Source: a virus
IMG/VR virus record: IMGVR_UViG_3300037307_000190
Strand: one strand, 5' to 3'
DNA: 64,000 nt
The translations under genes and the position numbers were made by a program. Below the pieces are notes generated by a model. It saw only the letters and a program-made list of their open reading frames with translations, made no database searches and was not told the DNA's origin. This document shows, in pieces, positions 5,405 through 52,020 of this stretch. Position 1 is the first letter of the stretch; the number at the start of each line of letters is the position of its first letter.

Positions 5405-8400
5405 ATGGACGACCTCGACAGACTGCTCGCCGGCCCTCAGTCGGCCGATCCATACGATCAGTTGCTGGCTGGTCCGCGCGGCCGTGCGCAACCGGCGCCC
5501 AAGGCCGAGCCGCAGCCCGGGTTCATCCCAACCGTCAAGCGCACGGGTGGGCAGATGCTCACCAGCCTTGCGCGCTCGATCGAAGACATCGGTGGTCCAC
5601 AGGCGATCTCGCAGCCCATTCGGCAGACCGGCGAAGCCATCGTCCAGAGCAACCCGGCCGGCATCGGAAGTCTGGAACAAGCCGCAGAAAGCCCGTGGCT
5701 GACCGTCAAGGAAGCCGTTGGACAAATGGTTCCGCAAGTCGGCGCAGCCGGTGTCGGCGCAACGCTGGGTGGGATCGCTGGCCGCGCAATCGGCTCGCGC
5801 TTCGGCGCGGGTCAACTGGGCGAGAAAGCCGGCCGCTATGTCGGCGGCCTGTCGCCGATCTTTGTCCAAGAGTACGGCGGCGTTCGCGACAAGCAGGTGG
5901 CCGGTGGGCAGGAAGACAAGCTGCGCGCGCTCGGTGCCGCCGGTATCTCGACCGGCCTTGAAGTGCTCGGGCCTGAGGCGAAGGTCATCAAGGGTCTGGT
6001 CGGCGCTCCGCTCAAGATGGGCGTCAAGGACGTCGGCATTGGGGCGCTGAAGCAAGCCGGTATCGAAACCTTCACCGAGGGCACCCAAAACGTCGTTGGA
6101 CAAATTGGTGCCTTTGAAGACCCGACGACTCCACAGGCGCTCGATGAAACCGCGCTGTCTGCGTTGATGGGCGGCATCGGTGGTGGTGTGGTCGGTGGCG
6201 CGTTGCGTGGCGCTGAATCACTGATGGCCCCGGGGGAGCAGGAAAAGGCGCCGGCGATCGAAGAGCCACCGCCGCCGCAACTGCCCTATGCGCCAGACCC
6301 GCTGGTGGTGTTCCCCGACGGTTCGGTGGCGTCGAAGTCCGAAGCCGAGAAGATCATTCGGGCGCGCGAAGCCGCGGCACGCCCGTGGATGCAGCCGACC
6401 GCCCCGCTGCCGGAAGAAGGGCCGCTATCCAAGACCGTCAACCGCGCGGTCGAGCAAGGAGTTGTCAGTCCTGATCTCGCGCCAGCCGAGACGATGGGAG
6501 GTGAAGATGTTGCCCGCACTACAGGAGCTGGTCAGCCTCAAGCTGCTATCGGTGGAGGAGGCCCACCAACTGGACGAGGTGGCCAAGCGCAGCCCGGCGG
6601 AGTTCCTGAGCCTGCCGCTGCCGCTGCTCAAGCGCCTGCTCCAAGCGCAGAGGCTGGCGGCGTTCAACGTGGCCGACCAGACAAGGCACTGACGGCGCCG
6701 GCCGATTGGCCGGTTCAGTACGGCAAGGGCGTCATCAAGACCGTCTCCGCGTTGGAGAAGTACCGCAGTGACGTGGTCGCCGACATCACGCGGTTGTCCA
6801 ATGGTCCTCAGAAGGAGGCTCGCAGAGAAACGTTGGCTCGCATCGATGCGTCCATCGCTCAAGCGAACGAGGAATACACCAATGCAAGGACTGACGTGCA
6901 AGGCGTGCGAGCGCCCGAGGGTGGAGGAGTGCCGGCTGAGAGGGTGGCCGAATCTGTGCCGCCTGCGGGAGAAGTTGTTCCCGCACCCGGACAGCCCGTA
7001 CCCGCCACTACCGGACGAGCTGCTAAGCCCGAACAGCAGCCCGCAGCGCAGGTCGTTCCTGCTCAAGTTGTGGAAGGGGCGAATCGACCCGAGCAACCCG
7101 CAGTGGCAACCGACGTTGCCCGAGTGGAAGGTACTCAAGGAGTAGCCAATGAACCCGTTGCACAACAAGCCGCCGTGCGGCAAATGCCAGAAGGCGCGAC
7201 TGTTGATGAGGAAGCTCGGCCTGCCGGTGCCGTTGTTGCACCAACCGCCCCGGCAACCAGCGCTGCTGGCGAAGCCGCCTTCCAACCCGTGGCTGCAGGG
7301 CCAGTCAACCGGCCCGATGGCGGAGTCACCCGAGTCGATGAAGCGGCCAACGTAGCTGCAACGAGTCAGACCGTCGGACCAAGCGCGTCTGCCGAGGCAT
7401 CTCTTCCAGTTCAAGCTCAACCCAATGCAGCGCCCCCGGCATCCGTTTTTGAGAGTGGCGGGGCAACGGTGTCGCAGGCAGGGGTGCCCAGCGAACCCGA
7501 GCCGGCGGGCGCTGCGCCACGCCAGGGCAAGATAGGCGACAAGCTGGCGGCTGGCGAAGTGGTGCTCACCGCCAGCGGCAGGGCCACGACACCGTTTCCC
7601 AAGGTGTCGATGGGGTCCAACCGCGCAACGACCAACACGGTCAGATCCGTGGACCGATGGTTGCTCGAAAACGCGGCGGCCGAGGCGCAAGCGCGCGGCG
7701 ACGACTTCAATGCGCGCACGTTCCAAGCCGATGCGCAGAGCAAGAGCATGCCGCCGGCATCGAAGGACGCGGCCGAGGAGTACCTGTTCGGGCAACAGCC
7801 TAGCGTGGTGCCGAGCATCCTCAAGCCGCTGTCACCATCTGCAACCCCCCAGGCACCAGCCCCCGCACCTGAAACCGCCCAAGGCGCTGCGACGCCTGCG
7901 GGGGTTGCGCCCACTCGCGCCCAGTTCGAGGGCTTCGATCGCGTGGAGGTGAAGACCGACGCCGGCTGGAAGCAGGGCGTGGTGAAGATGGCCGGCTCGC
8001 AAGAGGTGACGGTCAGGCTTGACGACGGCAACGACGTGACTGTTCCCGAATCGAACGTGGTGCCGGTTGCGACCGCCCTAACCCCGGAAGCTGCCCCGGT
8101 CAGCGCAGCGCCACTAGGAGAAAGCAATGCTCAAGAAATCGGCATCCAACAAGGCGTTGGAGACCCTCTCGGCGGAGATGCAGCCCGGCAAGCCGCAGAA
8201 GCAGCCGGCGGCAATCGCCTACTCGCAGCAGCGGGCGGCGCAAAAGTCGCAGGGCAAGTCGGTATCCCCGCCACCGAAGGCGGCGCCGCGCAAGTCGGCG
8301 GGCCGGGGGCGATAGGAGCGGGACAGGCCGCCCCGCCGATCGCGGCCCCAACTGAAGGAGTCCAACGTGGGCAAGTCCAAGAAGGGCGGGGGCAAGACGC

Positions 8401-11400
8401 CACCCAAGCCCTGCTGAGTCAGGAGCCGCCGCCGCAGATCCCTCCTGCGGCGGCGCCTACCAACATCCCCACCGAGAAGCCCAAGATCGTCCCGAGCAAG
8501 AACACCATCTTCACCGACGAGATGAGGGAATCGGCTCGCGCAGTGCTGCGCAGCAAGCTGCGTAACATCAACAGCGGCCTCGACCCGGAAGTTGTTCAGG
8601 CCGGCATCACGATCGCCGGCTATCACATTGAGAAGGGTGCGCGCACGTTCGCGGCCTACGCGAAGGCCATGGTCGCTGACCTTGGGCACGGCATCAAGCC
8701 GTACCTGAAGAGCTGGTACATGGCGGCGAAGTACGACGATCGCCTGTCACCCTTCTCCAAAGAGATGGACGACGAGAACACGATCTTGTCGTGGCGCCCA
8801 TCCGAGTTGAAGAGCCCTGAAGGCCGCAACGAGGTTGCCAAGGAAGTCGCCGCGCACTTCGACGCCGGCAACGCATTCCCGACCATCAACGAAGCGCGCA
8901 CGTTCGTCGCCAGCCTCACCGGCGAGAAGATCGAGCCGGGTACGCAGGAAGCCAAGCTCACCGACGAGGCCGTAGAGAACGGAGTCGTCCTGGCCGCGCG
9001 CAAGATCGTGGCCGCCGGCCGCGAGCAAGGCCAGGACGACGGCGCCATCTTCGGTCGGCTGGTCAAGTTGTATGACAGCCAGCCGAATCTTGGTGTGCGG
9101 TCTAGCACGAGCATCCGAGAGCAGGCGTACTCGACGCCGACGCCGCTGGCGTTCATCACATCGCGTCTGGCCAACGTGAAGCCGACCGATCGCGTCGGCG
9201 AGCCCACCGCCGGCAATGCCGCGCTGCTTGTCGAGGTCGATCCGAAGAATGCCGTCGTCAATGAACTGAACCCGGATCGGGCCGACAATCTCAAGCAGCT
9301 CGGCTTCTCGCCGTCGGCCAACGACGCGGCGACGACCGATCTGGCGACGCCGAAGAGTCTGGACGTGGTTTTGATGAATCCGCCATTCGGCGCCGTCAAG
9401 GACGCAGAGGGCAACACCAAGTCCTATCAGCTCACCGAGAACGTCAGGACCAACGAGGTCGATCAAGCCATCGCGTGGAACTCCCTGAAGGCCATGAAGG
9501 ACGACGGCCGGGCCGTGTTGCTGCTCGGCGGCGTGGATGCGACCGACCCCGAACAGATCCGCGAGGGGTACAGATCGCGGGCCAAGCGCGAGTTCTACTG
9601 GCGCCTTTACAACGACTACAACGTCGTCGACCATTTCACCGTGGACGGCGGTCTTTACTCGCGTCAGGGTGCGGGGTATCCTGTTGACGTCGTTGTCATA
9701 CGTGGTCGCGGGAAGACGCAGGGACGCCAACTGCCGGCGGCGCAACTGCCGGATCGGCTGACGAGCTGGCAACAGATCAAGGAGCGTGCAGATGGCCTCG
9801 CGCAAGAACGTAACGCTGGTGCCCTTCTGCCCGGAGTACGTGGACCCGGAGCTGGGGTCGGTGCTGGTCCCGAAGGGGGAGGTGTCGCAAGCCCAGTGGT
9901 GGGAGGCCCTGGCGTTCCGGGTGGCGGAGCTGGTGAGCAAGGAGCACGACCCGCAGGCGGCAATGTACCAAGCAGCGAGGGCGCTGGGAACCGGCCTACC
10001 GGACGACCCGCAGGAAGCGGGAGCAATGTTCGTCCTGTCCAACCTGCAACTGAAAAACGCCCTGTCGCATCAGGCGAACGACCACAGCCTGCAGTTTCCG
10101 GCGAAGGCGGCGCTCGGAAACCCGTCGGCCAAGCAGGCACTCAAGGAGGTCGACCTTCAGAGGTGGGTGGAACTCGCGTCGTCACAGGTGAGCGAGTCGA
10201 GTCTGGAATAGGTGCCGACCGGCGCGGTCAGGAAACCGAAACCGCAACTCAGGTCGCGTACAAGCCGAAATCCAAGGTTCCATCGGTCGGCACGCTGGTG
10301 CCGGTGAACCTGCGCGATCCGATCCAGGAATCGCTGAGCCGCATGGAGCAGGAGCACGGCAATCTCGACACCTACGTCGCCAGGGAACTCGGCATTCCGC
10401 TTCAGGACGCGCGCGACTACTTCTCGGCTGAACAGGTCGATGCGCTGGCGATGGCGATCCACAACGCCAACAACGGCTCGGGCTTCATCATCGGCGACCA
10501 GACCGGCATCGGCAAGGGTCGGGTGGTGGCCGGCATGATCCGCTACGCGATGAAGCAGGGCAAAGTCCCGTTGTTCGTGACCGAGAAGCCGAATCTGTAT
10601 GGCGACATGATTCGCGATCTCGACGACACCGGCATGACCGATGTCCTGAAGCTGGACACCAGAACCCCGGCGATCTTCATCACCAACGAAGAAACGATTC
10701 CATACTCGCTGATTCGCCAGATCGACGGCGAGAGCGTTGAACGGGCGTTGAAGCTCGCGCCGCCGGCCCGCGGCAAATCTCTCGCCGCAGCAATGGCCGA
10801 GATGCGCGACAAGAACAGTATCTCTCCGTACAAGGTGATCTTCACCACCTACAGCCAGATTCAGACGCAAAGGGGTGGAGCGACCGAGCGGATGCGTTTC
10901 ATCCAGCAGCTTGCGGACGGCGGCTTCGCCATCTTCGACGAAAGCCACAACGCGGGCGGGACGACCGTCACTCAGCCGCGCACCAAGGAGCAACGAGCAG
11001 CCGCCAAGCAAGGTGAAACGACGATGGGCCGCGCGGCATTCGTGCGCAAACTCGTTTCCAAGGCGTGGGGAACGCTGTTCTCGTCAGCCACGTATGCAAA
11101 GCGGCCTGACGTGATGGATCTCTACAGCAGCACGAACATGCGGCTGGCCGTTCCCAAGCTTGCCGATCTGGCCGACGCCATCACGGACGGCGGTGTGCCG
11201 ATGCAGCAGATCGTGGCGACGATGCTTGCCAAGGACGGGCAGTACATCCGTCGCGAGCGCACGTTCGCGGGCGTGGACTACAACACACGCGCGATGACGG
11301 TTGATCGCGAGACGGCCGAGAACATGGCCGAGTCGATGCGCGAGATCCTGAAGTTCTCGCGCCGGATGCAGACGCTGCTCAAGCAAAAGCAGAAATACCT

Positions 11401-14400
11401 CGACACGGAAGGCGTGAAGGTCGGCACGCTGGAAGGCGGCGAGAAGCAGACGATCCAAGCCACCAACTTCGGGTCGGTTATGCACAACCTCATCGACCAG
11501 ATGCTGTTGTCGTTGAAGGCCAAGGATTCGGTGGCGTTCGCCATCGAGCGGCTGAAAGCCGGCGAGAAGGTGGTGCTCACCGTGAGCAACACGATGGGCA
11601 GTTTCATCGAGAACTTCGCCGATGAAAACGGGCTGCGCAATGGCGACGCGATGTCGCTGAACTTCGGCGACCTCTACATACGCTACCTCGACAAGCAGCG
11701 GTACTACAAGGTGAAGACGCCCGGTGGCGCCACCGAGGAACGTTACATCGAAGACGAGGAAATGTCCGAGAAGGACTTGGCGCTGTACAAAGAGACGCGG
11801 GCGTTCATTAAGGGCGCAGGGTTCGGTGACGCACCGGTGTCGCCGATCGATTACATGCACCAGCAGCTTCGTGCCGCCGGCTACAAAACGGACGAGATCA
11901 CCGGACGCAACGTCGGGGTCAACTATGAAACGGAGATCCCGACGCTGCAATCGCGCAACGGCAGCATCAAACAGCGAGTCGATGCCATTCGCGGGTTCAA
12001 CAACGGATCGGTAGACGCCCTGATTCTCAACCAGTCGGGAGCTACGGGGCTGTCGCTGCACGCCTCGTCAAAGGTCCAAGACAAGCGGATGCGGCACATG
12101 ATTATCGTGCAGCCCGAAAAGAACATCGACACGCACGTCCAGATGTTGGGTCGGGTTCACCGCACGGGTCAGGTGAGGGTGCCGGCCTACACGCAGGCGA
12201 TGGCTGACATTCCAGCGGAGATGCGGCCAGCCGCGGTGCTGCTGAAGAAGATGGCGAGCCTGAACGCCAACACAACGGCGTCTCGCAAGAGCGCGGTGAC
12301 GGCAGAAGGCGTCGTTGACTTCATGAACGACTACGGTGGTCAGATCGCCATCGAGTACCTTGCGGACAACCCAGATGTCCACCAGTCTATCGGCGGCAAC
12401 AAGGTCATCGCGATCCCCGAAGATCCGAATGAAGCTAACGAAGACGTGATCCGCAAGCTCACGGGCTACATCCCGATCCTGCCAATTGCGACGCAGGAGA
12501 AGGTGTACGCGGATCTCGCGCAGCGGTACAACGAACTCATCGCCCGCGAAGACGCGATGGGAACCAACAAGCTCGAAGCGCGCACGCTCGATCTCGACGC
12601 AAAGACCCTGGGCCGTGAGTCGATCACCGAGAACAAGAGGGGCGACAGCATCTTCGCGCAACCGGCCTACATGGAGCGCGTCGACGTGAAGCGCACCGTC
12701 AAGCCGATGACCAACGCAGAGGTCGATGCGGCCATCGCCGAGCGATTGGGTGACAAGACGCAGCAGCAGTTCATCAACGATCTGTACGACACCGCACTGA
12801 AGGAAAAGGACGCCTTCATCGAACGTCGGGCCGCCGAACTGACGGAACTCGGTGCGGATGCCACACGCATCCAGCTCGTCAAGGACAACGTGAACCTGCA
12901 ATGGGGCACGGTGGCTGCGGTGCTGAGAACCTATCCTCCGGGCACGCGCGTGACGATGACGACCTCCGACGGCACGATCAACCACGGCACGGTGCTCGAC
13001 ATCCAGAATGCGCGCACGACGGCCAACCCGGTCGCCGGTTCGTCTTGGAAACTGACGCTGGCGCTCGTGAACGCTGATGCGCGTGTGCTGCAGATCAACG
13101 TTGGCCAGATCGGTACGCGCTACAACCTCAACGTCACCAACGTCGAGATCCCGGTCATCATGGGGACGGGAGGCGTCGAGTGGGTGACTGTCAAGGAGCT
13201 GCACGATCGTGGCCCCAACGTGCGGCGCGAGCGTCGCTACATCGTGACAGGCAACATCTTGGCGGGCTATTCCACCTACCAAGGTCAGATCATCACGTAC
13301 ACGAAGGACGACGGCACGACCGGGCAAGGCGTGCTGATGTCCAGGCTGTTCAACTTCGAGAAGGTTAAGGCAAGGAACATCAAGTTCACGTCGGCGGCGC
13401 CGCTGATGCAATTCCTGAAAGAGAGCGCCGATGCCGTCGTCACAACCGACGGCGGCCTTCGCGTCACCAAATGGAACGACCAGTATGTCTCGTTCCAGAC
13501 AGCGCCCTCCAAGCGTGAAGGCGGCCGCTACTTTCTCGACAAGCGCTTGACGGAAATTCTGCGCACTGACTTCTTCACGGTCAGCGGCAAGATGGTTGCT
13601 CGCGTGCGCGGCGGCGATGTCGAACAGATCGTGCGTCAGGCGCTCGAATACCTCATCACGGAACGCGACGAGGCATTCACCCCGCGCAACAACGTCGAGA
13701 AGGCCAAGAGCATCCTCGGCATTGGCAAGGTCGAAACGCCGACCATCAAGGCGCCCGAGCTGGACTTTGCGCCCGAGGGCGAGAAGCCGTCTGACCTCAA
13801 AGCTGGCGCGCGGGCGCCGGATCTCGACATACCGCCAGAAGGTGGCGGAGACGTCCGCTTCTCCCGCCAAGCCACCTCCCCCTGGTACAGCGACCTCGCC
13901 CGCCACGTCGAGAAGGCCGCAGGCGGCCTGCCGATGTTCGCTCGCGGCGAAGCGCAGGCAGCACGAGTCGTCGAAGTCCAGAAGCTCGCCGACTCGATCA
14001 CGTCCGCCTGGAAGGACGCGCCGACGATCAAGGTGGTCGAGAGCCTGCGTGACGAAGGCGTTCCAGAAGCGATCCGCAAGCAGGACCAGAAGCAGACTGC
14101 AAGCGGGGCCGCCAAGGGAGCGTCAGCCGTCTTCTACAAGAACACCGTCTATCTGGTTGCGGGTTCGCTTGGGACGCAACGGCAGGTCGCCGAAGCGGTG
14201 TTTCACGAAGTCCTCGGGCACTACGGGCTGCGCGCCACGTTCGGGGCGCAACTCAACCGCATCCTCGACAACATGGCACGTGTCAACCGTGCGCAGATCG
14301 AAGCCAAGGCCAAGGAGTACGGCCTCGACTTGAGCAAGGAAGGCGACCGCAGGATGGCGGCTGAGGAGGTGCTGGCCGATCTGGCAGAGAAGCGCCCGCA

Positions 14401-17400
14401 ATCGGGCTGGGTAAAGCAGGCGATCGCGGCGATCAGGACATGGCTGCGCGAGAACCTGCCGTCGGTGTTCGGCGACATGAAGATGAGCGATGCGGAACTG
14501 GTCCGCAACTACATCCTCCCGGCCAGACGGACGGTTGAGACAGGCACGCCAGCCAAGGGCGAGGGCCGCGCGGCATTCCAACGCGCGCCGATCGTGACGG
14601 AGACGCCGGAGTTCAAGAAGTGGTTCGGCGACAGCAAGGTGGTGAACGCTGACGGCAAGCCGCTGGTGGTGTATCACGGGACGACGGCTGATTTCGACGT
14701 GTTCGATCTCTCATGGACAGAAGTATCTCCGCGTGGAAACACGGCAGGAGCAGGTTTCTTCTTCGGGGAGTCTGCTCTTGAGGCAGAGGGATACACATGG
14801 GGTGCGCGCGGGCCAGAAGGCTCGATCATGCCGGTGTATCTGTCGATCAAGTCCCCCTACGTCATTGGCGAGAACAAGTACGACGATCCGGTATGGAATC
14901 GGATGGTTCAATCGAAGTCAGAAGCAAAGCGGGTGCGCGAAGAGCTGGTCGCCCAGGGGTACGACGGCATTCGCACCGCCCTTGGGGAGTGGGTTGCCTT
15001 CCGCCCCGAGCAGATCAAGAGCGCCACCGGCAACAGCGGCGCCTTCGACCCGACGAACCCGGACATCCGGTTCAGCAGGCGATCCACCGAGCTGCCCGAG
15101 TGGATCAGCAGCGGGCCTGCGGCTCTGCAGTCGGCGGCCAGAAAGTTCGAGACGTTCGCTCCCGGCAAGACGATCGGCGAGAAGTTCGACCAGTGGAAGA
15201 CCGGCCTGCTGGACCGTCTGATTCAGGGAACGATTGACGCCTACCTGCCGCTGAAGCGGCTGGACATGGACGCTTACATCCAAGCTCGGATGACGAAAGC
15301 GTCGGACGGCGCGCTCGAAGGCACGCTGCTCTACGGAAAGCCGGTACTCGACGACGACGGTGGCGTGCGCGGCATCCTCGATGGCAAAGGCTTCCTAGGT
15401 CTGATGCAAGACCTCAACGGCGAGCACGATCGGTTCCTGCTGTGGGTGGCCGGCAACCGCGCTGCGCGCTTGTATTCGGAAGGCCGCGAGAACCTTCTTG
15501 AGCCCGAAGAAATCAAGGCGCTTCAGAAACTCGACAAGGACGTGATGACGGACGGACGCCAGCGCGCACAGGTCTACGAGAAGACGCAGCGCGAGTTCGC
15601 CCAGTTCAACAAGGCGGTGCTCGACTTCGCCGAGAAGGCCGGGATCGTCAACGGCACAGACCGCGACCAGTGGGAAGCCTACTTCTACGTGCCGTTCTTC
15701 CGCGTCAGCGAAGACAGCACGATCGAGGGCCCGTCGGTGAAGGTGCGCGGGCTGGTCGGGCAGCAGGGCATCAAGCGCCTGCTGGGCGGCAAGGACAACA
15801 TGGGCGACCCGCTGCAGAACACGATGATGAACTGGTCGCACCTGTTGTCGGCATCGCTCGCCAACGTCGCGGCCGGCAAGGCGCTGCGGGCCGCGCAAGC
15901 GCAGGGCGTGGCCGAGCAGACCACCGAAGCGGAGGCGCGGATCGTTGCCAAGGCATCGGGCTTCAGGGATGGCGCCGTTTACTACATGAAGGACGGTCAA
16001 AGGCAGTGGTACATGGTGGCCGACAACGCGGTGCTCTCGGCGATCACGTCGCTCGAACCGGTTGGGCTCAAGGGGCCGGCGTTCAAACTCATGCAGAAGG
16101 CCAAGTACTGGCTGACACTTGGCGCGACCATCTCGCCGGCGTTCAAGATCCGAAACCTCCTGCGCGACACCGTGGCCGCACCGGGCATCAACCAGATGTC
16201 CTACAACGTCCTGTCCAACGTGATTCAGGGCTGGAAGGGGACGAAGAAGACCTCGGAGCACTACCAGCAGATGATGTTCTCGGGTGGCCTGATGCGATTC
16301 GGCACGCTGATCGAAGGCGAGCGCGGCTTGCACGCCAAGCGGCTGATCGAGGCCGGCATCAAGGACCAGACCATTCTCGACACACCCGAAAAAATCAAGG
16401 CCGCGACGACCAAGTTGTGGGATACGTGGCAGGAGTTCGGCGACAGGATGGAGAACGTCAATCGTTCTGCCCTGTACGACCAGCTCAAGAAGCAGGGCAA
16501 GAGCCATCGGGAAGCTGCATTCCTCACGCGCGACCTCATGGACTTCTCGCTGCACGGCTCATGGGCCGGCATGAGAATCCTCACGCAAGTCGTGCCGTTC
16601 CTGAACGCCCGGATTCAGGGCCTCTACAAGCTGGGCCGCGCCTACAAGGACGACCGCAAGCGCTTCGCCACGATGACGGGCGCGGTGGCCCTGACATCGA
16701 TCGCTTTGATGCTGGCCTACAAAGACGACGACGAGTGGAAGCAGCGGGAAGACTGGGACCGTGACTTCTACTGGTGGTTCAAGCTCGACGGCGTGGCCTA
16801 CCGCATCCCGAAGCCGTTCGAGATTGGCGCCCTGGGCACGATCGCCGAGCGCACGGCGGAACTGCTGGTGGACGACGAGATGAACGGCAAGCGCTATGCG
16901 GAACGCCTGAAGCAGATGGCGCTGCATACATTCAGCATGAACCCGGTGCCGCAGTTGTTTAAGCCGATGGTCGACCTGTACGCGAACAACGACTCGTTCA
17001 CCGGCCGCCCGATCGAGACGTTTGCGATGGAGGGCCGATCGAAGTCAGAGCGCACCGGCCCCAGCACGACGGCGCTCGCAAAGTTCCTCGGCTCTGCTGG
17101 TGACGTGACGGGCGTTTCTCCGGCACAGATCGATTTCGTCATCGGCGCCTACTTCGGCTGGCTGGGGATGATGACCGCAGCCGTCGTCGATACCGCGGTC
17201 AGCCCCGTGTCGTCCGTGCCGGCGCCGGCCAAGCGTTGGGACGACTGGGCCATGCGATTTGCCACGGAGCTTCCTGAAGCGCAGTCTCGCTACGTCACGA
17301 ACTTCTACAACTCGGCCAAAGAAGCGCAGGGCATCCTGGCCGATCTGCGCGCGGCGCGCGAAGAGCGCGACATGGAGCGGATCGCCGAGCTGATGGCCGA

Positions 17401-17608
17401 TCCGAAGATGGCGACCGCCAAGATGTTCCAGACGCAACAGCGGCGGTTCACAGAGTTGTCGAAGCGCATTCGCGTGGTGCGCGCCGATCGAGAAATGGAC
17501 GGCGACACGAAGCGCGATCGCCTCGACGAGTTGACCCAGCAGCGCAACATGCTGGCGAAGGTCGTCATGGAGCGAGCTGAGCGAGCCCAAGCACAAGCGC
17601 AGCGATGA
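5405..17608 (+). CDS. giant multidomain 'polyvalent' virion protein (4067 aa): MTase + SNF2-type helicase + HExxH peptidase-like + ART-like + PLxRFG-type C-terminal module
   Basis: Uninterrupted 12.2-kb ORF. Motifs read from the translation:
- EPTAGNAAL and LMNPPFG
- GDQTGIGKGR, FDESHNAGG and QMLGRVHRTGQ
- FHEVLGH
- VYHGT..GAGFFFGE..EWVAF
- GLMRFG
This domain mix matches DarB-like polyvalent proteins of phages and conjugative elements (recollection). Confidence 0.85.
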   Translation: MDDLDRLLAGPQSADPYDQLLAGPRGRAQPAPKAEPQPGFIPTVKRTGGQMLTSLARSIEDIGGPQAISQPIRQTGEAIVQSNPAGIGSLEQAAESPWLTVKEAVGQMVPQVGAAGVGATLGGIAGRAIGSRFGAGQLGEKAGRYVGGLSPIFVQEYGGVRDKQVAGGQEDKLRALGAAGISTGLEVLGPEAKVIKGLVGAPLKMGVKDVGIGALKQAGIETFTEGTQNVVGQIGAFEDPTTPQALDETALSALMGGIGGGVVGGALRGAESLMAPGEQEKAPAIEEPPPPQLPYAPDPLVVFPDGSVASKSEAEKIIRAREAAARPWMQPTAPLPEEGPLSKTVNRAVEQGVVSPDLAPAETMGGEDVARTTGAGQPQAAIGGGGPPTGRGGQAQPGGVPEPAAAAAQAPAPSAEAGGVQRGRPDKALTAPADWPVQYGKGVIKTVSALEKYRSDVVADITRLSNGPQKEARRETLARIDASIAQANEEYTNARTDVQGVRAPEGGGVPAERVAESVPPAGEVVPAPGQPVPATTGRAAKPEQQPAAQVVPAQVVEGANRPEQPAVATDVARVEGTQGVANEPVAQQAAVRQMPEGATVDEEARPAGAVVAPTAPATSAAGEAAFQPVAAGPVNRPDGGVTRVDEAANVAATSQTVGPSASAEASLPVQAQPNAAPPASVFESGGATVSQAGVPSEPEPAGAAPRQGKIGDKLAAGEVVLTASGRATTPFPKVSMGSNRATTNTVRSVDRWLLENAAAEAQARGDDFNARTFQADAQSKSMPPASKDAAEEYLFGQQPSVVPSILKPLSPSATPQAPAPAPETAQGAATPAGVAPTRAQFEGFDRVEVKTDAGWKQGVVKMAGSQEVTVRLDDGNDVTVPESNVVPVATALTPEAAPVSAAPLGESNAQEIGIQQGVGDPLGGDAARQAAEAAGGNRLLAAAGGAKVAGQVGIPATEGGAAQVGGPGAIGAGQAAPPIAAPTEGVQRGQVQEGRGQDATQALLSQEPPPQIPPAAAPTNIPTEKPKIVPSKNTIFTDEMRESARAVLRSKLRNINSGLDPEVVQAGITIAGYHIEKGARTFAAYAKAMVADLGHGIKPYLKSWYMAAKYDDRLSPFSKEMDDENTILSWRPSELKSPEGRNEVAKEVAAHFDAGNAFPTINEARTFVASLTGEKIEPGTQEAKLTDEAVENGVVLAARKIVAAGREQGQDDGAIFGRLVKLYDSQPNLGVRSSTSIREQAYSTPTPLAFITSRLANVKPTDRVGEPTAGNAALLVEVDPKNAVVNELNPDRADNLKQLGFSPSANDAATTDLATPKSLDVVLMNPPFGAVKDAEGNTKSYQLTENVRTNEVDQAIAWNSLKAMKDDGRAVLLLGGVDATDPEQIREGYRSRAKREFYWRLYNDYNVVDHFTVDGGLYSRQGAGYPVDVVVIRGRGKTQGRQLPAAQLPDRLTSWQQIKERADGLAQERNAGALLPGVRGPGAGVGAGPEGGGVASPVVGGPGVPGGGAGEQGARPAGGNVPSSEGAGNRPTGRPAGSGSNVRPVQPATEKRPVASGERPQPAVSGEGGARKPVGQAGTQGGRPSEVGGTRVVTGERVESGIGADRRGQETETATQVAYKPKSKVPSVGTLVPVNLRDPIQESLSRMEQEHGNLDTYVARELGIPLQDARDYFSAEQVDALAMAIHNANNGSGFIIGDQTGIGKGRVVAGMIRYAMKQGKVPLFVTEKPNLYGDMIRDLDDTGMTDVLKLDTRTPAIFITNEETIPYSLIRQIDGESVERALKLAPPARGKSLAAAMAEMRDKNSISPYKVIFTTYSQIQTQRGGATERMRFIQQLADGGFAIFDESHNAGGTTVTQPRTKEQRAAAKQGETTMGRAAFVRKLVSKAWGTLFSSATYAKRPDVMDLYSSTNMRLAVPKLADLADAITDGGVPMQQIVATMLAKDGQYIRRERTFAGVDYNTRAMTVDRETAENMAESMREILKFSRRMQTLLKQKQKYLDTEGVKVGTLEGGEKQTIQATNFGSVMHNLIDQMLLSLKAKDSVAFAIERLKAGEKVVLTVSNTMGSFIENFADENGLRNGDAMSLNFGDLYIRYLDKQRYYKVKTPGGATEERYIEDEEMSEKDLALYKETRAFIKGAGFGDAPVSPIDYMHQQLRAAGYKTDEITGRNVGVNYETEIPTLQSRNGSIKQRVDAIRGFNNGSVDALILNQSGATGLSLHASSKVQDKRMRHMIIVQPEKNIDTHVQMLGRVHRTGQVRVPAYTQAMADIPAEMRPAAVLLKKMASLNANTTASRKSAVTAEGVVDFMNDYGGQIAIEYLADNPDVHQSIGGNKVIAIPEDPNEANEDVIRKLTGYIPILPIATQEKVYADLAQRYNELIAREDAMGTNKLEARTLDLDAKTLGRESITENKRGDSIFAQPAYMERVDVKRTVKPMTNAEVDAAIAERLGDKTQQQFINDLYDTALKEKDAFIERRAAELTELGADATRIQLVKDNVNLQWGTVAAVLRTYPPGTRVTMTTSDGTINHGTVLDIQNARTTANPVAGSSWKLTLALVNADARVLQINVGQIGTRYNLNVTNVEIPVIMGTGGVEWVTVKELHDRGPNVRRERRYIVTGNILAGYSTYQGQIITYTKDDGTTGQGVLMSRLFNFEKVKARNIKFTSAAPLMQFLKESADAVVTTDGGLRVTKWNDQYVSFQTAPSKREGGRYFLDKRLTEILRTDFFTVSGKMVARVRGGDVEQIVRQALEYLITERDEAFTPRNNVEKAKSILGIGKVETPTIKAPELDFAPEGEKPSDLKAGARAPDLDIPPEGGGDVRFSRQATSPWYSDLARHVEKAAGGLPMFARGEAQAARVVEVQKLADSITSAWKDAPTIKVVESLRDEGVPEAIRKQDQKQTASGAAKGASAVFYKNTVYLVAGSLGTQRQVAEAVFHEVLGHYGLRATFGAQLNRILDNMARVNRAQIEAKAKEYGLDLSKEGDRRMAAEEVLADLAEKRPQSGWVKQAIAAIRTWLRENLPSVFGDMKMSDAELVRNYILPARRTVETGTPAKGEGRAAFQRAPIVTETPEFKKWFGDSKVVNADGKPLVVYHGTTADFDVFDLSWTEVSPRGNTAGAGFFFGESALEAEGYTWGARGPEGSIMPVYLSIKSPYVIGENKYDDPVWNRMVQSKSEAKRVREELVAQGYDGIRTALGEWVAFRPEQIKSATGNSGAFDPTNPDIRFSRRSTELPEWISSGPAALQSAARKFETFAPGKTIGEKFDQWKTGLLDRLIQGTIDAYLPLKRLDMDAYIQARMTKASDGALEGTLLYGKPVLDDDGGVRGILDGKGFLGLMQDLNGEHDRFLLWVAGNRAARLYSEGRENLLEPEEIKALQKLDKDVMTDGRQRAQVYEKTQREFAQFNKAVLDFAEKAGIVNGTDRDQWEAYFYVPFFRVSEDSTIEGPSVKVRGLVGQQGIKRLLGGKDNMGDPLQNTMMNWSHLLSASLANVAAGKALRAAQAQGVAEQTTEAEARIVAKASGFRDGAVYYMKDGQRQWYMVADNAVLSAITSLEPVGLKGPAFKLMQKAKYWLTLGATISPAFKIRNLLRDTVAAPGINQMSYNVLSNVIQGWKGTKKTSEHYQQMMFSGGLMRFGTLIEGERGLHAKRLIEAGIKDQTILDTPEKIKAATTKLWDTWQEFGDRMENVNRSALYDQLKKQGKSHREAAFLTRDLMDFSLHGSWAGMRILTQVVPFLNARIQGLYKLGRAYKDDRKRFATMTGAVALTSIALMLAYKDDDEWKQREDWDRDFYWWFKLDGVAYRIPKPFEIGALGTIAERTAELLVDDEMNGKRYAERLKQMALHTFSMNPVPQLFKPMVDLYANNDSFTGRPIETFAMEGRSKSERTGPSTTALAKFLGSAGDVTGVSPAQIDFVIGAYFGWLGMMTAAVVDTAVSPVSSVPAPAKRWDDWAMRFATELPEAQSRYVTNFYNSAKEAQGILADLRAAREERDMERIAELMADPKMATAKMFQTQQRRFTELSKRIRVVRADREMDGDTKRDRLDELTQQRNMLAKVVMERAERAQAQAQR
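6507..6692 (+). CDS. nested +1-frame small ORF (61 aa) inside a giant-ORF linker
   Basis: GGGAGGTG is followed by 4 nt and then the ATG. By hand count, 55/61 third positions are G/C in this frame against 22/62 in the host frame over the same stretch. The peptide MLPALQELVSLKLLSVEEAHQLDEV... has normal composition. Confidence 0.45.
   Translation: MLPALQELVSLKLLSVEEAHQLDEVAKRSPAEFLSLPLPLLKRLLQAQRLAAFNVADQTRH
6882..7145 (+). CDS. nested +1-frame small ORF (87 aa), Cys-rich N-terminus
   Basis: GAGGA lies 8 nt upstream of the ATG. The nested frame has high GC3 while the host frame turns A/T-ending. Peptide begins MQGLTCKACERPRVEECRLRGWPNLC... Confidence 0.4.
   Translation: MQGLTCKACERPRVEECRLRGWPNLCRLREKLFPHPDSPYPPLPDELLSPNSSPQRRSFLLKLWKGRIDPSNPQWQPTLPEWKVLKE
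7149..7355 (+). CDS. nested +1-frame small ORF (68 aa) with a CGKC motif, coupled to the preceding nested ORF
   Basis: AAGGAG precedes the ATG, which lies 3 nt after the TAG of ORF 6882..7145. MNPLHNKPPCGKCQKARLLMRKLGL resembles a redoxin-type N-terminus. High GC3. Confidence 0.4.
   Translation: MNPLHNKPPCGKCQKARLLMRKLGLPVPLLHQPPRQPALLAKPPSNPWLQGQSTGPMAESPESMKRPT
8127..8315 (+). CDS. nested +1-frame small basic ORF (62 aa)
   Basis: TAGGAG lies 6 nt upstream of the ATG. By hand count, 56/63 third positions are G/C against 35/63 in the host frame. MLKKSASNKALETLSAEMQPGKPQKQPAAIAYSQQRAAQ resembles small basic proteins with a KQA(I/V)AI..S.AR motif (recollection). Confidence 0.5.
   Translation: MLKKSASNKALETLSAEMQPGKPQKQPAAIAYSQQRAAQKSQGKSVSPPPKAAPRKSAGRGR
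8367..8417 (+). CDS. nested +1-frame micro-ORF (16 aa, MGKSKKGGGKTPPKPC)
   Basis: GAAGGAG lies 6 nt upstream of the GTG, in the same frame as 8127..8315 and 51 nt after its TAG. It may be the severed tail of that ORF. Confidence 0.25.
   Translation: MGKSKKGGGKTPPKPC
9120..9760 (+). other. N6-adenine DNA methyltransferase-like domain of the giant protein
   Basis: Motif I-like GEPTAGNAAL at about 9200-9226. Motif IV NPPF at 9377-9388, in frame with 5405. Confidence 0.7.
9792..10211 (+). CDS. nested +1-frame ORF (139 aa) inside the Gly/Pro-rich linker between the MTase and helicase domains
   Basis: AAGGAG lies 7 nt upstream of the ATG. Nearly every codon ends in G/C, while the host frame reads gga/ggt/gct/caa codons. 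The peptide MASRKNVTLVPFCPEYVDPELG... is globular-looking. Confidence 0.5.
   Translation: MASRKNVTLVPFCPEYVDPELGSVLVPKGEVSQAQWWEALAFRVAELVSKEHDPQAAMYQAARALGTGLPDDPQEAGAMFVLSNLQLKNALSHQANDHSLQFPAKAALGNPSAKQALKEVDLQRWVELASSQVSESSLE
10490..12175 (+). other. SNF2/DEAD-like helicase domain of the giant protein
   Basis: GDQTGIGKGR at about 10492-10521, DESH at 10937-10948 and QMLGRVHRTGQ at 12140-12172. All are in frame. Confidence 0.75.
14204..14221 (+). other. HExxH zinc-peptidase-like motif (HEVLGH) in the giant protein
   Basis: The triplets cac gaa gtc ctc ggg cac read directly, in frame. Confidence 0.6.
14660..15022 (+). other. ADP-ribosyltransferase-like (ART-PolyVal-type) module of the giant protein
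   Basis: PLVVYHGTTADFDVFDL ... GAGFFFGES ... YDGIRT ... GEWVAFRPEQIKS resembles the H-Y/S-E type ART pattern (recollection). Confidence 0.5.
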
Positions 17609-37541: not shown

Positions 37542-40500
37542 GTGGCTATCGGTTTTCGCGCAGCAGGAGCGTGGGCCTCGGGCTCTACGTCCGTCACGCC
37601 AGCGCTGCCTTCTGGCAACGCGGCCGGCGATATAAATGTGCTGTTCGTCGGGTGCAAGCCCTATAGCGCAACAATCAACACGCCGAGCGGCTGGACCAAG
37701 CTAGCCGCCGGCAGCGGTGCCAACGGCACCACGGCCAGCGGCGTCGACACTGGATCGGTGCAGTGGGCCACGTTCTACCGAGAGTGGCAGAGCGGCGACG
37801 CAGCGCCGACAGTCAGTGTCACTAGCGGCAACGTCACGCTGGCCAGCATTCGCGGATTCACTAAGGGCGCGGGCGAAAACTGGCTGACCCCCGTTGCCGG
37901 CAAAGGGTCGGATACCAGCAGCGGGACCGGGTTTTCTATTACCAGCGATGTAAATGTCGGCATCGCGTCCGGCGATTACGTCGTCCACGGCGCTGTCATC
38001 GCCGGCAACAACGCGACCTTTGGCAGCCCGACCCTGACCGCGACGGGCTGCACGTTCGGCGCCGTCACTGAAAGTCCGACGACCGAGGGATCAACCGCCA
38101 CCGGGAATGACCTCGAGGCCAGCGCGTTTTACACGACCTGCACCGCAGGCCCGTCAAGCGCGGCCCCCGTGGCTGGCTGGACCCTGAGTGTCGCGCAGAC
38201 GGGCGGCGGCAGCATCACTCGGTTGCGAGTGACGACTACCACTAGTGGGGCTGGATCGTCGGCAGGATCGGCGACCGCAAGCGCCGACGGCCGGCGGATT
38301 GTGTCTAGCGCGGGGTCATCGACCACCGCACTGGCGACAGCGACCGCGGTGGGTCGAGCAAGCGCACGCGCGGCTGGTGCAGCGTCAGGTGGCGCGACCG
38401 TGTCCGGGGTGGGTGGATACGTCATCAGCGCCATCGGCACGGCCGCCGGCACGTCCACGGTCAATGCCTCGGGAGCTACCGTCGCCGCAGCAGCCGGCGC
38501 GTCGTCTGGTACAGCCGGCGTTAACGCAGTCGCCGTTGGCATCGGTGCTGCCGTTGGTGCGTCGGCCGGAGTGTCCACAGTTGCGGGCACGTCCGCAGCC
38601 AGGGCGGCAGGGGGCGGGGCGGCGGCGGGCGCAGGGTCGGTCGTTGGCGTTGGTGCGGCCAGCGGGCCGGCAAGCGGGACATCGTCCGGCACAGGGTCTG
38701 TTTCCGGGGTCGGCGTCGGGATCGGAGCCGGGGCTGGCGCCTCGAGCAGTGCCGCGACAGTCACCGGAGCTGGCTTCGCCAGCGCCTACTCGTCGGGCGC
38801 AGGGTCGGCGACCGGCACCGCAACCGTAGCGGGTGTCGGGCAGGCCACGTCTGAGTCGGCCGGCTCGTCTGCCGGTGTAGCGGCTGTAGCGGGCGTTGGC
38901 CAGGCCACCTCCGAGGCTGACGGGTCCGCCTCCGGGGCCGCCACAGTCTCCGGCAAGGGCCTTCAGCGCGAGCCGACCTACGACCCCTGGTACGGCCACG
39001 TCCAACTGCTGCTGCACGGCGAGGGCACAGAGGGCGGGACCACGTTCACCGATTCTGGTCCGCGCGGTCATGCGCCGGACTCCATTTTCGGCAACGTGCG
39101 CACGCTGGACGACACAGCGAAATTTGGTACGAGATCTATCTATTTCGACGGATCAACCGATCGCATTACCTACAGCAACACCGACAAGTATTTCTACCCG
39201 CAGCAACTGGATTTCACTATCGAGGGGTGGATATATCCGACCTTGATGCCAACGTCGACAACCTGGAAGGGCATCTACGGGCGACGAGTTTTCGGTGGCA
39301 ACTCTGCAACTAGATGGGTTATCCATATCTCCGGGCCCGCCGGCAACAAAGTCACTTTCGAAAGTCCGCTTTGCTACATATCGACAGCCTCGGCTGCCAC
39401 GATAAACGCATGGCAGCACATTGCCGTGGTCCGCAAGGCGGGCGTGTTCCGCATTTTCCTCAACGGTGTAAAGGGCGTCGACGACGACAACAACCTTGCC
39501 GACGAGCTACCGAACGACGCGGCTCAAACCGTGTCGTTCGGTGTGCTGTCGTCTGGATCGACCTCAAACGAATTCCAAGGATTCCTCGACGATTGGCGAG
39601 TCACCGAAGGAGTTGCTCGGTATTGGGAAGACTTTACCCCGCACGTCGATGAGCTACCCAATGCCCATCTACCCGACGAGCCGGTCTACATGGGCCGAGG
39701 CAATGCTGCGGCATCCGCGGGCGCGGGCAGTGTCTCGTATCGAGCAGGCTGGCAGGCCGATGAGTTCATGGTGCTCGCGGTCGAGACGGCCAACGAGCCC
39801 ATCGCCACACCATCTGGGTGGACGGCGCCATCCAACTCGTCACAGCAGGCCGGGAGCGCCGGGACGGGTGTTGGTCTGCAGGTGTTCACGCGACTGGCCC
39901 AGGCCGGCGATTCAGGGTCTGTCTCACTGCCGGATGCGGGCGACCATTGGCACGCCCGCATATGGCACTTTCGCTACGTCGCCGGCATGGATGTCAACCC
40001 GGCTGGTGACACAGACGGCACAGGCAGCACGACGATCTCCTGGCCGCCTATATCCACGTCGTCTTCCAAGACCATCGTCATGGGCCTGTCTGCCCATGCG
40101 ACAGACGGGCTGGTGTGGGAAGGCAACCGCATCAGCGTGTCCGGGCTTGAGCGTGTCGCCGAGCTGCACGGAGGTCAAACCGATGCAGGCAACGGCGGGG
40201 GGTTCTACGCTTGGTATGGGTACGCCACCAGCGCCAAGACGATTTCCGGCGCCGCGGCCATCCTCAAGACATCGAGTATTCAGGCTCGCGTCATCCTGGC
40301 CCTCAAGCCGGCGACGATTGCATCCGGGGCAGGGTCAGCTTCTGGCGCGGGGTCTGCATCCGGTGTAGGTGCCGAAGGGGGCGGCACGGTCGCGTCGGGC
40401 GCAGGCTCGTCGTCTGGTGTCGCCACAGTATCGGCTGTTGGCAGGCGCATCGTCGTTTCCGCGGGTGCATCCGACGGGGCAGCAACCGCATCCGCTGCAG

Positions 40501-50219: not shown

Positions 50220-50507
50220 ATGAACCTGCAGGTGCTGAGAAAGAACGACCTCGATGGTGGCTACACCATCTTCTTCAGTGGTCAGGTGAGTTCGAAGGAG
50301 ATCGAGGAACTGGATCTTCGTGCCCAGGACAAGCGCAGGGTGGCCGGGCTGACCGCGCACAGCGACAATCTGATCGGGTACTCGAAGAGGCTGGCGACGC
50401 TGTCCATGTTGTTCATGCGCTGCCACGAGAACGCGATGGACGCGGATGAAGCCATGCTGCGCGCCGTTGAGCTGATCGAGCGAGTGAGGCAAGATGGAGT
50501 ACGCTGA
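50220..50507 (+). CDS. hypothetical protein (95 aa) between terS and terL
   Basis: AAAGGAGGGAGC upstream. Its 3' end overlaps the terL start. Confidence 0.6.
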   Translation: MNLQVLRKNDLDGGYTIFFSGQVSSKEIEELDLRAQDKRRVAGLTAHSDNLIGYSKRLATLSMLFMRCHENAMDADEAMLRAVELIERVRQDGVR

Positions 50508-52020
50508 TCTGCTGGCCCGCATGGCCATGGACCTGGAGTTTCTGTGCGAGACGTCGTTGCAGATACGCGACAAGTCGGGTCGGGAAGTCCTGTTCAGGTG
50601 GAACGACGCCCAGAGGTACGTCCACGAGCGGCTGGAAACCCAGAAGCGACTCACCGGGAAGGTCAGGGCGATCATCCTGAAGGCCCGCCAGCAGGGGATG
50701 TCGACCTACATCTCCGCCCGGTACTACCAGAAGACCTCGACCGACTTCGGGAAGACCGCCGTCATCCTGACCCACGAGCAGCCGGCCACCGACAACCTGT
50801 TCTCGATGGTCAAGCGCTATTGGGAACTCAGTCCCGATAGGGTAAAGCCACGGGTCAGCACCGAGAACGCCAAGGAGCTTCACTTCGGTGGGATGAGGTC
50901 TGGGTACAAGGTCGCCACCGCAGGTGCCAGGGCTACGGGGCGATCGCAGACGGCCCAGTTCTTCCACGGTTCCGAGGTCGCCTTCTGGCCATCGGCCGGG
51001 GATCACTTGGCTGGTGTGGGTCAGGCCATCCCCGATCTTCCCGGGACCGAGGTGATCCTCGAATCCACCGCCAACGGTGTCGGCAATCCGTTCCATTCGA
51101 TGTGGGTGGCCGCCATCAGGGGAGAGTCCGACTTCATCCCGATCTTCATCCCGTGGTTCTGGGACAGCGGCTACCGCAAGACACCCCCCGAAAACTTCGA
51201 ACTCGACGCCGACGAGATCGAGTACATGAACGCCTACGGACTCTCCATCGAGCAGATGGCGTGGAGACGGGGCAAGATCGCCTCGGACTTCGCCGGGGAC
51301 AACGCCCTGTTCGATCAAGAGTACCCCGCCTCTGCAGACCTCGCCTTCATGCGTTCTGCGAAGAAGGCGCTGATCTCACCGGTGATGGTCGCCAAGGCAA
51401 AACGACCCAAGCCGATGTTCGACCGTGGCGTTCGTGTCATCGGGGTGGATCCCGCCGAGTACGGGGACGACGAATCGGCCGTCGTCTACCGCTGGGGAAG
51501 ACGTGTGGTGTGGGTCAAGCGGTACAAGAACATCGGCACGATGGAACTCGCGGGGCTGGTTGCCAGCTTTCTCGACGACATTCAACCGGACGCCTGCAAC
51601 GTCGACGTGACGGGCGTCGGAACCGGCGTGGCCGATCGACTGCTCGAGCTTCAGTACCAGCGGGTCCACCGGGTCCACTTTGGAGGAAAGCCCCACGACT
51701 CCGAGAAGTACCTCAACCGAAGGGCCGAAAGCTGGGGCCGCATGAAGGACTGGATTGCCGATGATCCTTGTCTACTCCCGGACGACGATGTGCTTGCTGC
51801 AGAACTGTCCTCGGTGCCCTACTCCTACGACTCGTCACGAAGGATGGTGCTGAAGTCCAAGGAGAAGATGAAGGCCGACGGGATCCCAAGCCCGGACTCG
51901 GCCGACGCGCTTGCATTGACGTTCTCCGAGAACGTCGCTCAACGTGAGCCAGACCCACCGACGTGGCGCGAGACGCGCTTCGCAACCCACAAGCGTCGTC
52001 GTTCAGCGATGGCGGCATAG
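50494..52020 (+). CDS. terL: terminase large subunit
   Basis: 508 aa. Walker A-like LKARQQGMST, plus ILESTANG and a C-terminal nuclease-type region with GVDPAEYGDDES. Lies directly upstream of the portal gene. Confidence 0.8.
   Translation: MEYADLLARMAMDLEFLCETSLQIRDKSGREVLFRWNDAQRYVHERLETQKRLTGKVRAIILKARQQGMSTYISARYYQKTSTDFGKTAVILTHEQPATDNLFSMVKRYWELSPDRVKPRVSTENAKELHFGGMRSGYKVATAGARATGRSQTAQFFHGSEVAFWPSAGDHLAGVGQAIPDLPGTEVILESTANGVGNPFHSMWVAAIRGESDFIPIFIPWFWDSGYRKTPPENFELDADEIEYMNAYGLSIEQMAWRRGKIASDFAGDNALFDQEYPASADLAFMRSAKKALISPVMVAKAKRPKPMFDRGVRVIGVDPAEYGDDESAVVYRWGRRVVWVKRYKNIGTMELAGLVASFLDDIQPDACNVDVTGVGTGVADRLLELQYQRVHRVHFGGKPHDSEKYLNRRAESWGRMKDWIADDPCLLPDDDVLAAELSSVPYSYDSSRRMVLKSKEKMKADGIPSPDSADALALTFSENVAQREPDPPTWRETRFATHKRRRSAMAA

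Follow-up and report, generated by a model that had tools for sequence, protein, structure and literature searches.

Small genes apparently embedded in the inter-domain linkers of a giant polyvalent phage gene

Results

A giant phage gene that may code in two frames

The viral DNA record IMGVR_UViG_3300037307_000190 (64,000 nucleotides, analysed in full and hereafter called the window) carries a giant gene for a 4067-residue polyvalent, DarB-like protein. This gene, referred to as the host gene, probably codes in two frames. At least two of the linkers between its domains appear to be the host-frame reading of complete, pre-existing small genes, which would still be made as separate proteins. 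The two small genes, n4 and n6, are located in the +1 frame within the giant open reading frame (ORF), and comparison with their families shows both to be intact, as judged from their sequences. A third nested ORF, n1, may be another gene of this kind. The features on which this reading turns are as follows; the boundaries of linker stretches, here and below, are approximate.

5405..17608, + strand: host gene, a single uninterrupted ORF encoding the 4067-residue polyvalent (DarB-like) protein
8000..8401, + strand: linker stretch 3, at the junction of the N-terminal module and the DarB-like module; holds n4
8115..8120, + strand: TAGGAG, a Shine-Dalgarno (SD)-like site 6 nt 5' of ATG 8127; its TAG doubles as the upstream stop of the +1 frame
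8127..8315, + strand: n4, nested gene of 62 residues, homologue of phrog_2423 (PB1 gp23-like small virion proteins)
8402..9619, + strand: domain block with normal G+C content at third codon positions (GC3), comprising the NTIFT..WYMAAKYD domain and an N6-methyltransferase; served as query for related giant genes
9620..10204, + strand: linker stretch 4, between the methyltransferase and helicase domains; holds n6
9779..9784, + strand: AAGGAG, an SD-like site 7 nt 5' of ATG 9792; a sequence match only, of a site type found at chance frequency
9792..10211 (also 9786/9792-10211), + strand: n6, nested gene of 139 residues in the +1 frame, intact member of a family of about 130 residues

A sequence-only reading of the window had listed six small ORFs nested in the giant gene, starting at 6507, 6882, 7149, 8127, 8367 and 9792. 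All six are present, in the +1 frame relative to the 5405..17608 ORF, and the SD-like string quoted for each lies upstream of it. The accompanying proposal that the nested segments are real ancestral genes is borne out by homology for n4 and n6. It is plausible only for the ORF at 6507, and fails for those at 6882, 7149 and 8367, which have no homologues and poor codon statistics.

Homologues of n4 and n6

Searched against PHROGs with hmmscan, n4 matches phrog_2423 (E=2.1e-8, 35 bits), residues 2-43 aligning with positions 3-45 of the 52-position profile. Its tblastn matches include the PB1-like gp23 'virion protein' (68 residues) and proteins of Burkholderia phage BCSR129 (58 residues) and MW202545 (171 residues). 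In these alignments, residue 2 of n4 pairs with residue 3 of the free-standing small genes, and the N-termini are thus in register. The motif GKPxKQAxAIAYSxxR is common to n4 and its free-standing homologues. T is absent from all 62 third codon positions of n4.

An exhaustive phmmer search of 1.84 billion representative proteins with n6 returned 65 matches at E<=1e-3, 28 of them at <=1e-10. Most homologues are 130-135 residues long and align end to end. All columns that are invariant in a 27-sequence alignment (P14, G29, W36, L40, R43, G77, N84, L87 and W125) are kept in n6. The start and the stop are also at the family positions, the C-terminus reading ..VSESSLE* as against ..VSESSLD* in relatives. 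In a leave-one-out test with a family hidden Markov model (HMM), n6 scored 140.5 bits and ranked 15th of 27, a rank that is flattered because the family was picked by similarity to n6. Homologues, P0025, P0029 and P0030 among them, are free-standing genes on bacterial contigs; one lies beside a divergent XRE-type helix-turn-helix gene, and others are found beside an AAA_15/AAA_23 operon.

The AF2 (AlphaFold2) model of n6, obtained from a 15-sequence alignment, is confident (pLDDT, the per-residue confidence, 87.6; pTM, the global score, 0.82). Foldseek comparison of this model with the PDB and BFVD gave no match, nor did n6 match Pfam, PHROGs, NCBIfam or PADLOC, or phages and plasmids in tblastn searches. 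The G+C contents of n6 at codon positions 1, 2 and 3 (GC1, GC2 and GC3) are 0.69, 0.41 and 0.85, and its codon log-odds are 0.22, against -0.06 for the host frame over the same DNA; typical domains score 0.29.

Two observations concern the same region. A contig of 957 nt (L020, JGI 3300043175) is identical to window positions 9816-10772. In its public gene call, the n6 frame is annotated as gene P0024 (130 residues) and the host frame as a separate overlapping gene, so that the frame that is annotated depends on fragment length. In the related giant genes of L015 and L016, a +1 ORF at 6854-7300 (GC1/2/3 0.66/0.42/0.76) is located directly 3' of the methyltransferase domain, under a Gly-rich host linker. 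n6 occupies the same position in the window, and the ORF resembles the n6 family only weakly (14.7 bits; hhalign probability 25%).

The host frame is maintained across the nested genes

Had the host frame over the nested ORFs been a shadow of five nested proteins written with the codon usage of the genome, 7.7 stops would be expected in it; none is found (P=2e-4). The giant ORF is thus a maintained frame rather than a chance shadow, as the sequence-only reading had held in calling it continuous, and both frames are kept. The host linkers over the nested genes are Gly/Ala/Pro/Glu/Gln-rich and have no detectable homologue or family. This composition had been attributed to a shifted reading of NNS codons (N, any base; S, G or C), and the attribution follows from the genetic code. 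NNS codons read one base earlier become SNN codons, which yield a nearly stop-free translation rich in Gly, Ala, Pro, Val, Glu and Gln.

Two comparisons with relatives point to gene fusion. Among relatives of the N-terminal module, the closest is P0001 of contig L008 (42% identity over residues 38-350 and 69% over residues 706-807), a separate gene of 998 residues. Its stop comes 31 residues past the domain preceding linker 3, and unrelated small genes come next. At the junction 5' of the NTIFT..WYMAAKYD domain, a different small +1 ORF is present in each of the window (n4), L003 and L002.

Frame switch in four linkers

The frame switch originally described for four stretches of the host ORF was reproduced by a position-specific GC profile. 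The two stretches that do not hold n4 or n6 are these.

6419..6700, + strand: linker stretch 1, Gly/Ala/Pro/Gln-rich in the host reading, with frame switch; holds n1
6839..7444, + strand: linker stretch 2, host GC3 0.42-0.56; the codon model ranks no other frame above that of the host

Host GC3 drops to 0.4-0.55 within the stretches, and host GC1, equivalent to the GC3 of the +1 frame, reaches about 0.9. Over all four stretches together, host GC3 is 321/625 (0.51), versus 2806/3442 (0.82) in the rest of the ORF (Fisher P = 1.7e-53). The earlier hand counts were exact or off by one: third positions ending in G or C number 55/62 in the nested frame and 22/62 in the host frame at 6507-6692, and 56/63 and 35/63 at 8127-8315. 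For 9792-10211, the corresponding values are 119/140 and 58/140. Alanine codons GCG/GCC/GCT/GCA are used 26/29/27/32 times in the stretches versus 152/163/33/49 times outside, and glutamine CAA/CAG codons 35/12 times versus 43/124 times. Four-fold families are thus nearly even in the stretches and strongly G/C-biased outside, indicating that the shift is synonymous and is not an effect of amino-acid composition.

Ordinary linkers do not behave in this way. Ala/Pro-rich linkers have a GC3 of 0.86-0.92 in L004 (2977-3157 and 3967-4147) and of 0.68-0.80 in L008, and an Ala/Pro stretch within the window itself (7805-7865) has a GC3 of 0.70-0.80. Since linkers of high-GC relatives retain a high GC3, low complexity alone is insufficient to bring it to 0.4-0.5. 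The L004 and L008 linkers led us to drop, as a full explanation, the idea that codon usage is generally relaxed in linkers; a contribution in linker 2 is possible. A modest compositional effect on GC3 exists, and it falls short of values of 0.4-0.5.

Two other sources of the signal were considered. Minus-strand ORFs of 456 and 431 residues have no family matches, and codon log-odds are poor in all three reverse frames; an antisense gene was therefore rejected. The +1 peptides were also searched as possible frame-shifted forms of domains that relatives encode in frame, with no matches.

The compositional effect is seen in another gene of the window. The ORF at 37542-42989 encodes a protein of 1815 residues with no PHROG match, made mostly of Ala/Gly/Ser/Thr/Val repeats with units like SGAGS..ATVSGVG, in blocks at about 38140-38900 and 40240-42900. 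GC2 (0.8-0.88) exceeds GC3 (0.60-0.76) in this ORF, which is probably a fibre-like structural protein.

A conserved hidden gene, MYQ, in related giant genes

Related giant genes also feature GC3-inverted linkers with protein-like +1 ORFs. One of these, MYQ (named for its first residues), is conserved. It is about 125-136 residues long, its ATG follows the WYMAAKYD domain directly, and every copy is in the +1 frame. MYQ is carried by at least 11 elements, comprising five metagenomic contigs and six annotated phages, with cultured phages among them: Serratia phage Parlo, Pseudomonas phage Skulduggery, Klebsiella vB_KpnP_ZX1, Ruegeria 45A6, Vibrio 1.232.O and Vibrio D274. The copies are positioned as follows.

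L002, 6329->6705: MYQ, metagenomic contig
L003, 6338-6748: MYQ, metagenomic contig
L017, ~6290: MYQ, metagenomic contig
L018, 342-716: MYQ, metagenomic contig
L019, 504-878: MYQ, metagenomic contig
NC_048758, 53818-54174: MYQ, annotated phage record
NC_070827, 33577-33930: MYQ, annotated phage record
MG592596, 22818-23141: MYQ, annotated phage record
MW722080, 49373-49729: MYQ, annotated phage record
KT820175, 30775-31119, - strand: MYQ, annotated phage record
OZ196038, 19918-20241: MYQ, annotated phage record

MYQ is unannotated in all six phage records, where it sits under a single annotated giant coding sequence. An SD-like site precedes the MYQ ATG in each of the seven copies read (L002, L003, L018, L019, Parlo, Skulduggery and Vibrio 1.232.O). 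An HMM built from seven MYQ proteins matches L002, L003, L017, L018, L019, Parlo, Skulduggery and Vibrio 1.232.O.

The nested frame is the better conserved of the two. In pairwise comparisons of L002, L003, L018 and L019, nested identity (0.34-0.54) is always above host identity (0.17-0.41). In the same four copies, the ratio of nonsynonymous to synonymous substitution rates (dN/dS) is 0.43-0.9 in the nested frame and about 1.0-1.2 in the host frame. Position 2 of the nested frame, which is the host wobble position, varies least in a local alignment of L002 and L003. MYQ coincides with a GC3 inversion in Parlo (0.78 vs 0.37) and Skulduggery (0.79 vs 0.43), and in a Vibrio phage of 46% GC no open +1 run within 3.3 kb is longer than MYQ, whose GC3 there is 0.68. 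MYQ shows that a gene inside a DarB-like linker can be held over long evolutionary times. No family or function was found for MYQ. Its HMM does not match the window, where the host frame continues at the corresponding place with normal GC3.

In L019 (173-878), the ORF containing the WYMAAKYD domain stops at 827-829, inside MYQ and 49 nt before the MYQ stop; the two thus still overlap by about 325 nt although no downstream domain is fused. A further +1 ORF, at 6422-6691 of L004, is located in a GC3-inverted linker of a giant gene from a gammaproteobacterial metagenome-assembled genome; its TnpV-like match (PF14198, E=0.0036) is below the cutoff.

Open frames and start sites compared with chance

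The host sequence was shuffled synonymously 2000 times, with the host protein and the local codon usage held. The presence of the nested ORFs and their SD sites, noted in the sequence-only reading, is in itself no evidence for genes, as the observed values are inside the shuffle distribution (all P >= 0.06). The recognisable domains of the host ORF hold longer open +1 and +2 runs (780 and 1260 nt) than the linkers do. Because the shuffles match what is observed, open frames and SD sites are uninformative, and the drop in host GC3 is the sole anomaly of the raw sequence.

The other nested ORFs

n1 and the three nested ORFs for which gene status is not claimed are listed below.

6507..6692, + strand: n1, 61 residues, +1 frame, candidate gene
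6882..7145, + strand: n2, 87 residues, +1 frame, unsupported as a gene
7149..7355, + strand: n3, 68 residues, +1 frame, unsupported as a gene
8367..8417, + strand: +1 ORF of 16 codons only, rejected as a gene

n1 is plausible as a real gene on codon statistics: along with the GC3 contrast given above, its codon log-odds are 0.21 versus 0.06 for the host frame. GGAGG is found 5 nt 5' of its ATG. The single-sequence AF2 model of n1, weak evidence in itself, is helical with a pLDDT of 87.2.

Codon log-odds are lower in the nested frame than in the host frame for both n2 (-0.05 vs 0.01) and n3 (-0.07 vs 0.21). The peptides had all been described as ordinary and non-repetitive in composition; the description fits those starting at 6507, 8127 and 9792, and does not fit those at 6882 and 7149, which are Pro/Arg/Leu/Cys-rich. 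n2 may be what is left of a decayed gene or may result from composition, and linker 2 may as a whole be a decayed gene. Pfam matches of n3 are below threshold only (GST_N_3, E=0.049; Glutaredoxin, E=0.17). CxxC motifs occur in the +1 peptides of linker 2 (CKAC in n2, CGKC in n3). The 4067-residue giant protein has no cysteine at all.

Nothing above threshold was found for n1, n2 or n3 in Pfam, PHROGs, NCBIfam or PADLOC, and tblastn against phages gave no match. A word-indexed protein search with n1, n2, n3 and n6 concatenated was also without match; since it missed the n6 family as well, its negative result for n1-n3 is weak. The ORFs at 6882, 7149 and 8367 are, on this sequence record, unsupported and are not claimed as genes.

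The host gene and its genome

The window has a GC content of 0.64 and belongs to a tailed phage, with the terminase gene at 50494 and the portal gene at 51963. RecE-like, Erf-like and helicase genes are also present. Pfam matches of the host ORF are LPD38, ART-PolyVal, AAA_34 and Helicase_C_4; PHROGs matches are DarB-like antirestriction, DNA methyltransferase and phrog_18222. Several unrelated enzymatic domains, including a methyltransferase-helicase dyad, are therefore joined in one polypeptide, as is the rule for polyvalent proteins. A homologous giant protein, JC1 gp69, has been detected in virions (PMC9144972), and by analogy with it the product of the host ORF might be a virion component that is injected along with the DNA. 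The host-gene region showed neither an internal promoter nor an internal terminator. Megablast of the giant gene against phages and plasmids gave no match.

Discussion

Origin and expression of the nested genes

The small genes carry the NNS codons typical of the genome, and their reading in the host frame, which is -1 relative to them, yields SNN codons and hence stop-poor, probably disordered spacers, from which residual host-frame stops have been purged. Neighbouring genes may have been fused by read-through of the small genes between them. Alternatively, small genes may have landed in existing linkers, in which case only frame-preserving, stop-free versions would have survived. In either case, the small genes are probably still translated separately, ribosomes initiating within the long mRNA at the SD-ATG of each, as happens for Rz1 inside Rz. 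The intactness of n4 and n6, together with the MYQ precedent, leans towards maintained and expressed genes over silent relics. Whether the arrangement is general is an evenly balanced matter: giant DarB-like or polyvalent genes of proteobacterial phages may, with about equal chances for and against, routinely hide conserved, expressed small +1 genes in linkers that originate as out-of-frame read-through.

Several observations weigh against this reading. Stop counts in the +1 frame of the four stretches (1, 2, 5 and 1), the longest open runs and the counts of SD sites with ATG or GTG are all at chance given the host sequence. In linker 2, with n2 and n3, GC3 drops without coding support in the +1 frame, so part of the signal has another cause, and the Ala/Gly/Ser repeats of ORF 37542-42989 also have a lowered GC3 (0.60-0.76). 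The manner in which the n6 family was assembled favours the rank of n6 within it. Viral, genome and metagenome collections and an index of 5.8 billion proteins gave domain-level homologues only, none with alignable linkers, and for lack of such a close relative, synonymous constraint on n4 and n6 themselves is not measurable. The only identical sequence, L020, is from the same phage and is uninformative on constraint. The absence of a promoter-like site is to be expected if one long mRNA is translated, and it lends no positive support.

Alternative explanations

The nested segments might instead be swallowed relics, n4 and n6 (and the older, decayed n1-n3) having once been genes that are no longer translated, so that only the host linker matters. 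This is unlikely, although it deserves real weight: n2 and n3 do look decayed, with the GC3 signature but neither codon nor homology support and with +1 stops at 7143 and 7353; the host frame is clearly selected to stay open; and SD and start sites are at chance frequency. n6 does not look like a relic, however, retaining every invariant residue, the start and stop of its family and a mid-range HMM score. Its GC2 is held at 0.41, whereas drift would be expected if it were a linker under weak constraint in a genome of 64% GC. The n4 start codon is in register with its family, and MYQ has stayed in the +1 frame across deep divergence, its nested dN/dS being below 1 and the host dN/dS about 1. 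Another explanation is composition or chance, in which Gly/Ala/Pro/Gln linkers force G or C at host position 1, relaxed or compensatory codon choice lowers GC3, and the ORFs are shadows preceded by accidental GGAG strings. Stops, ORF lengths and SD-start counts at shuffle expectation agree with it, as does the lowered GC3 in the repeats of ORF 37542-42989, and it is probably the right reading for the ORFs at 6882, 7149 and 8367. As an account of the whole, it is very improbable. Two +1 peptides show significant full-length homology to independent families, which refutes it for n4 and n6, and it explains neither the confident n6 fold nor the high GC3 of ordinary linkers in relatives.

Phages often produce two products from one gene via frameshifting. 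Ribosomes translating the giant ORF could shift to the +1 frame and release shortened products with n4 or n6 as their C-terminal domain, the stops of the nested ORFs defining such products. We regard this recoding as improbable. Alignment with free-standing homologues places the N-termini of n4 and n6 at the start codons of the latter, and an ATG with an SD-like site is kept in all seven MYQ copies examined. By frame arithmetic, a -1 slip would lead into the +2 frame, which is filled with stops, and not into the nested frame; neither a stop in the host frame nor a known +1 shift site is apparent, although no scan for shift sites was run. It is very improbable that the giant ORF is itself an artefact, made of separate domain genes whose common frame is open by accident or because of misassembly. 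High-GC3 genes do have few stops in their -1 frame, and the N-terminal module is a separate gene in one relative. Yet no stop ends any domain segment, and one common frame runs over 12.2 kb, with the significant deficit of stops reported above (0 vs 7.7, P=2e-4). An independent metagenome contig is identical over 957 nt, and homologous ORFs of 3000-4500 residues are continuous in many phages, their products having been detected in virions by mass spectrometry (PMC9144972).

Implications

Gene callers forbid long overlaps on the same strand, which makes such genes invisible in annotation. If the nested genes are expressed, phage proteomes, including those of cultured phages and therapeutic candidates, miss a class of small proteins. 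These proteins would be physically tied to the anti-restriction/polyvalent protein and may be its partners, such as cofactors of packaging or activity, or anti-defence factors. A stop-poor shifted reading of an NNS-coded gene, resulting in a Gly/Ala/Pro-rich spacer, would also provide a concrete mechanism for the gain of linkers in giant proteins and, if true, a general route by which multi-domain phage proteins grow yet keep the genes they engulf. In GC-rich genomes, a local inversion of GC3 between frames is an inexpensive and specific indicator of embedded genes, and MYQ was recognised by it in Parlo and Skulduggery.

Comparison with known systems

Searches of the literature consulted for DarB, PLxRFG or polyvalent proteins in combination with overlapping or embedded genes returned no report. 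The host ORF is a typical member of the polyvalent/DarB-like virion proteins (Iyer et al. 2017, PMC5512222), with a methyltransferase-helicase dyad, ART-PolyVal and LPD38. A term search of that article met no mention of frameshifts, overlapping genes or linkers, and the sole passage it returned on a reading frame concerns separate smaller ORFs near the main gene.

n4 has the N-terminal 40-residue core and the KQAxAIAYS motif of the PB1 gp23 family (phrog_2423). In PB1-like phages, BCSR129 and MW202545, the gene is free-standing and follows a head-morphogenesis gene, whereas n4 is embedded in the giant ORF.

Embedded same-strand genes and overprinting are already known. In the Rz/Rz1 spanins (lambda-type, and also in Bcep22-like phages, PMC9144972), a complete gene with its own start is similarly located in the +1 frame inside a longer gene of the same strand, on one mRNA. 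The window likewise contains complete same-strand ORFs in another frame and an outer frame that is kept open; a conserved embedded protein is found for n6 and n4, and not for the ORFs at 6882, 7149 and 8367. It differs in that the outer gene is a 12-kb polyvalent gene and that several ORFs are embedded, specifically in inter-domain linkers. Moreover, the embedded genes would here be the older ones, as they have free-standing homologues elsewhere, and the outer frame the newcomer.

In the overprinting of phiX174 A/B and D/E (reviewed in PMC8227390), the ancestral frame has typical codons and a wide distribution, and the novel frame is biased and probably encodes disordered protein. The same division is seen here: the nested families are widespread and use genome-typical codons, and the host linkers are of low complexity, with no family or homologue. 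Classical overprinting, however, creates a new small protein within an old gene (PMC8227390), whereas here an old small gene would have been overprinted by the extension of a large one, the novel frame being the linker. In addition, the phage is a large double-stranded DNA phage, with no obvious pressure on genome size. Genes remodelled out of frame in the E. coli pangenome (PMC8788219) are also coding DNA translated in a new frame within another protein. In those cases, the original frame is lost; in the giant gene described here, it is intact and of family-typical length.

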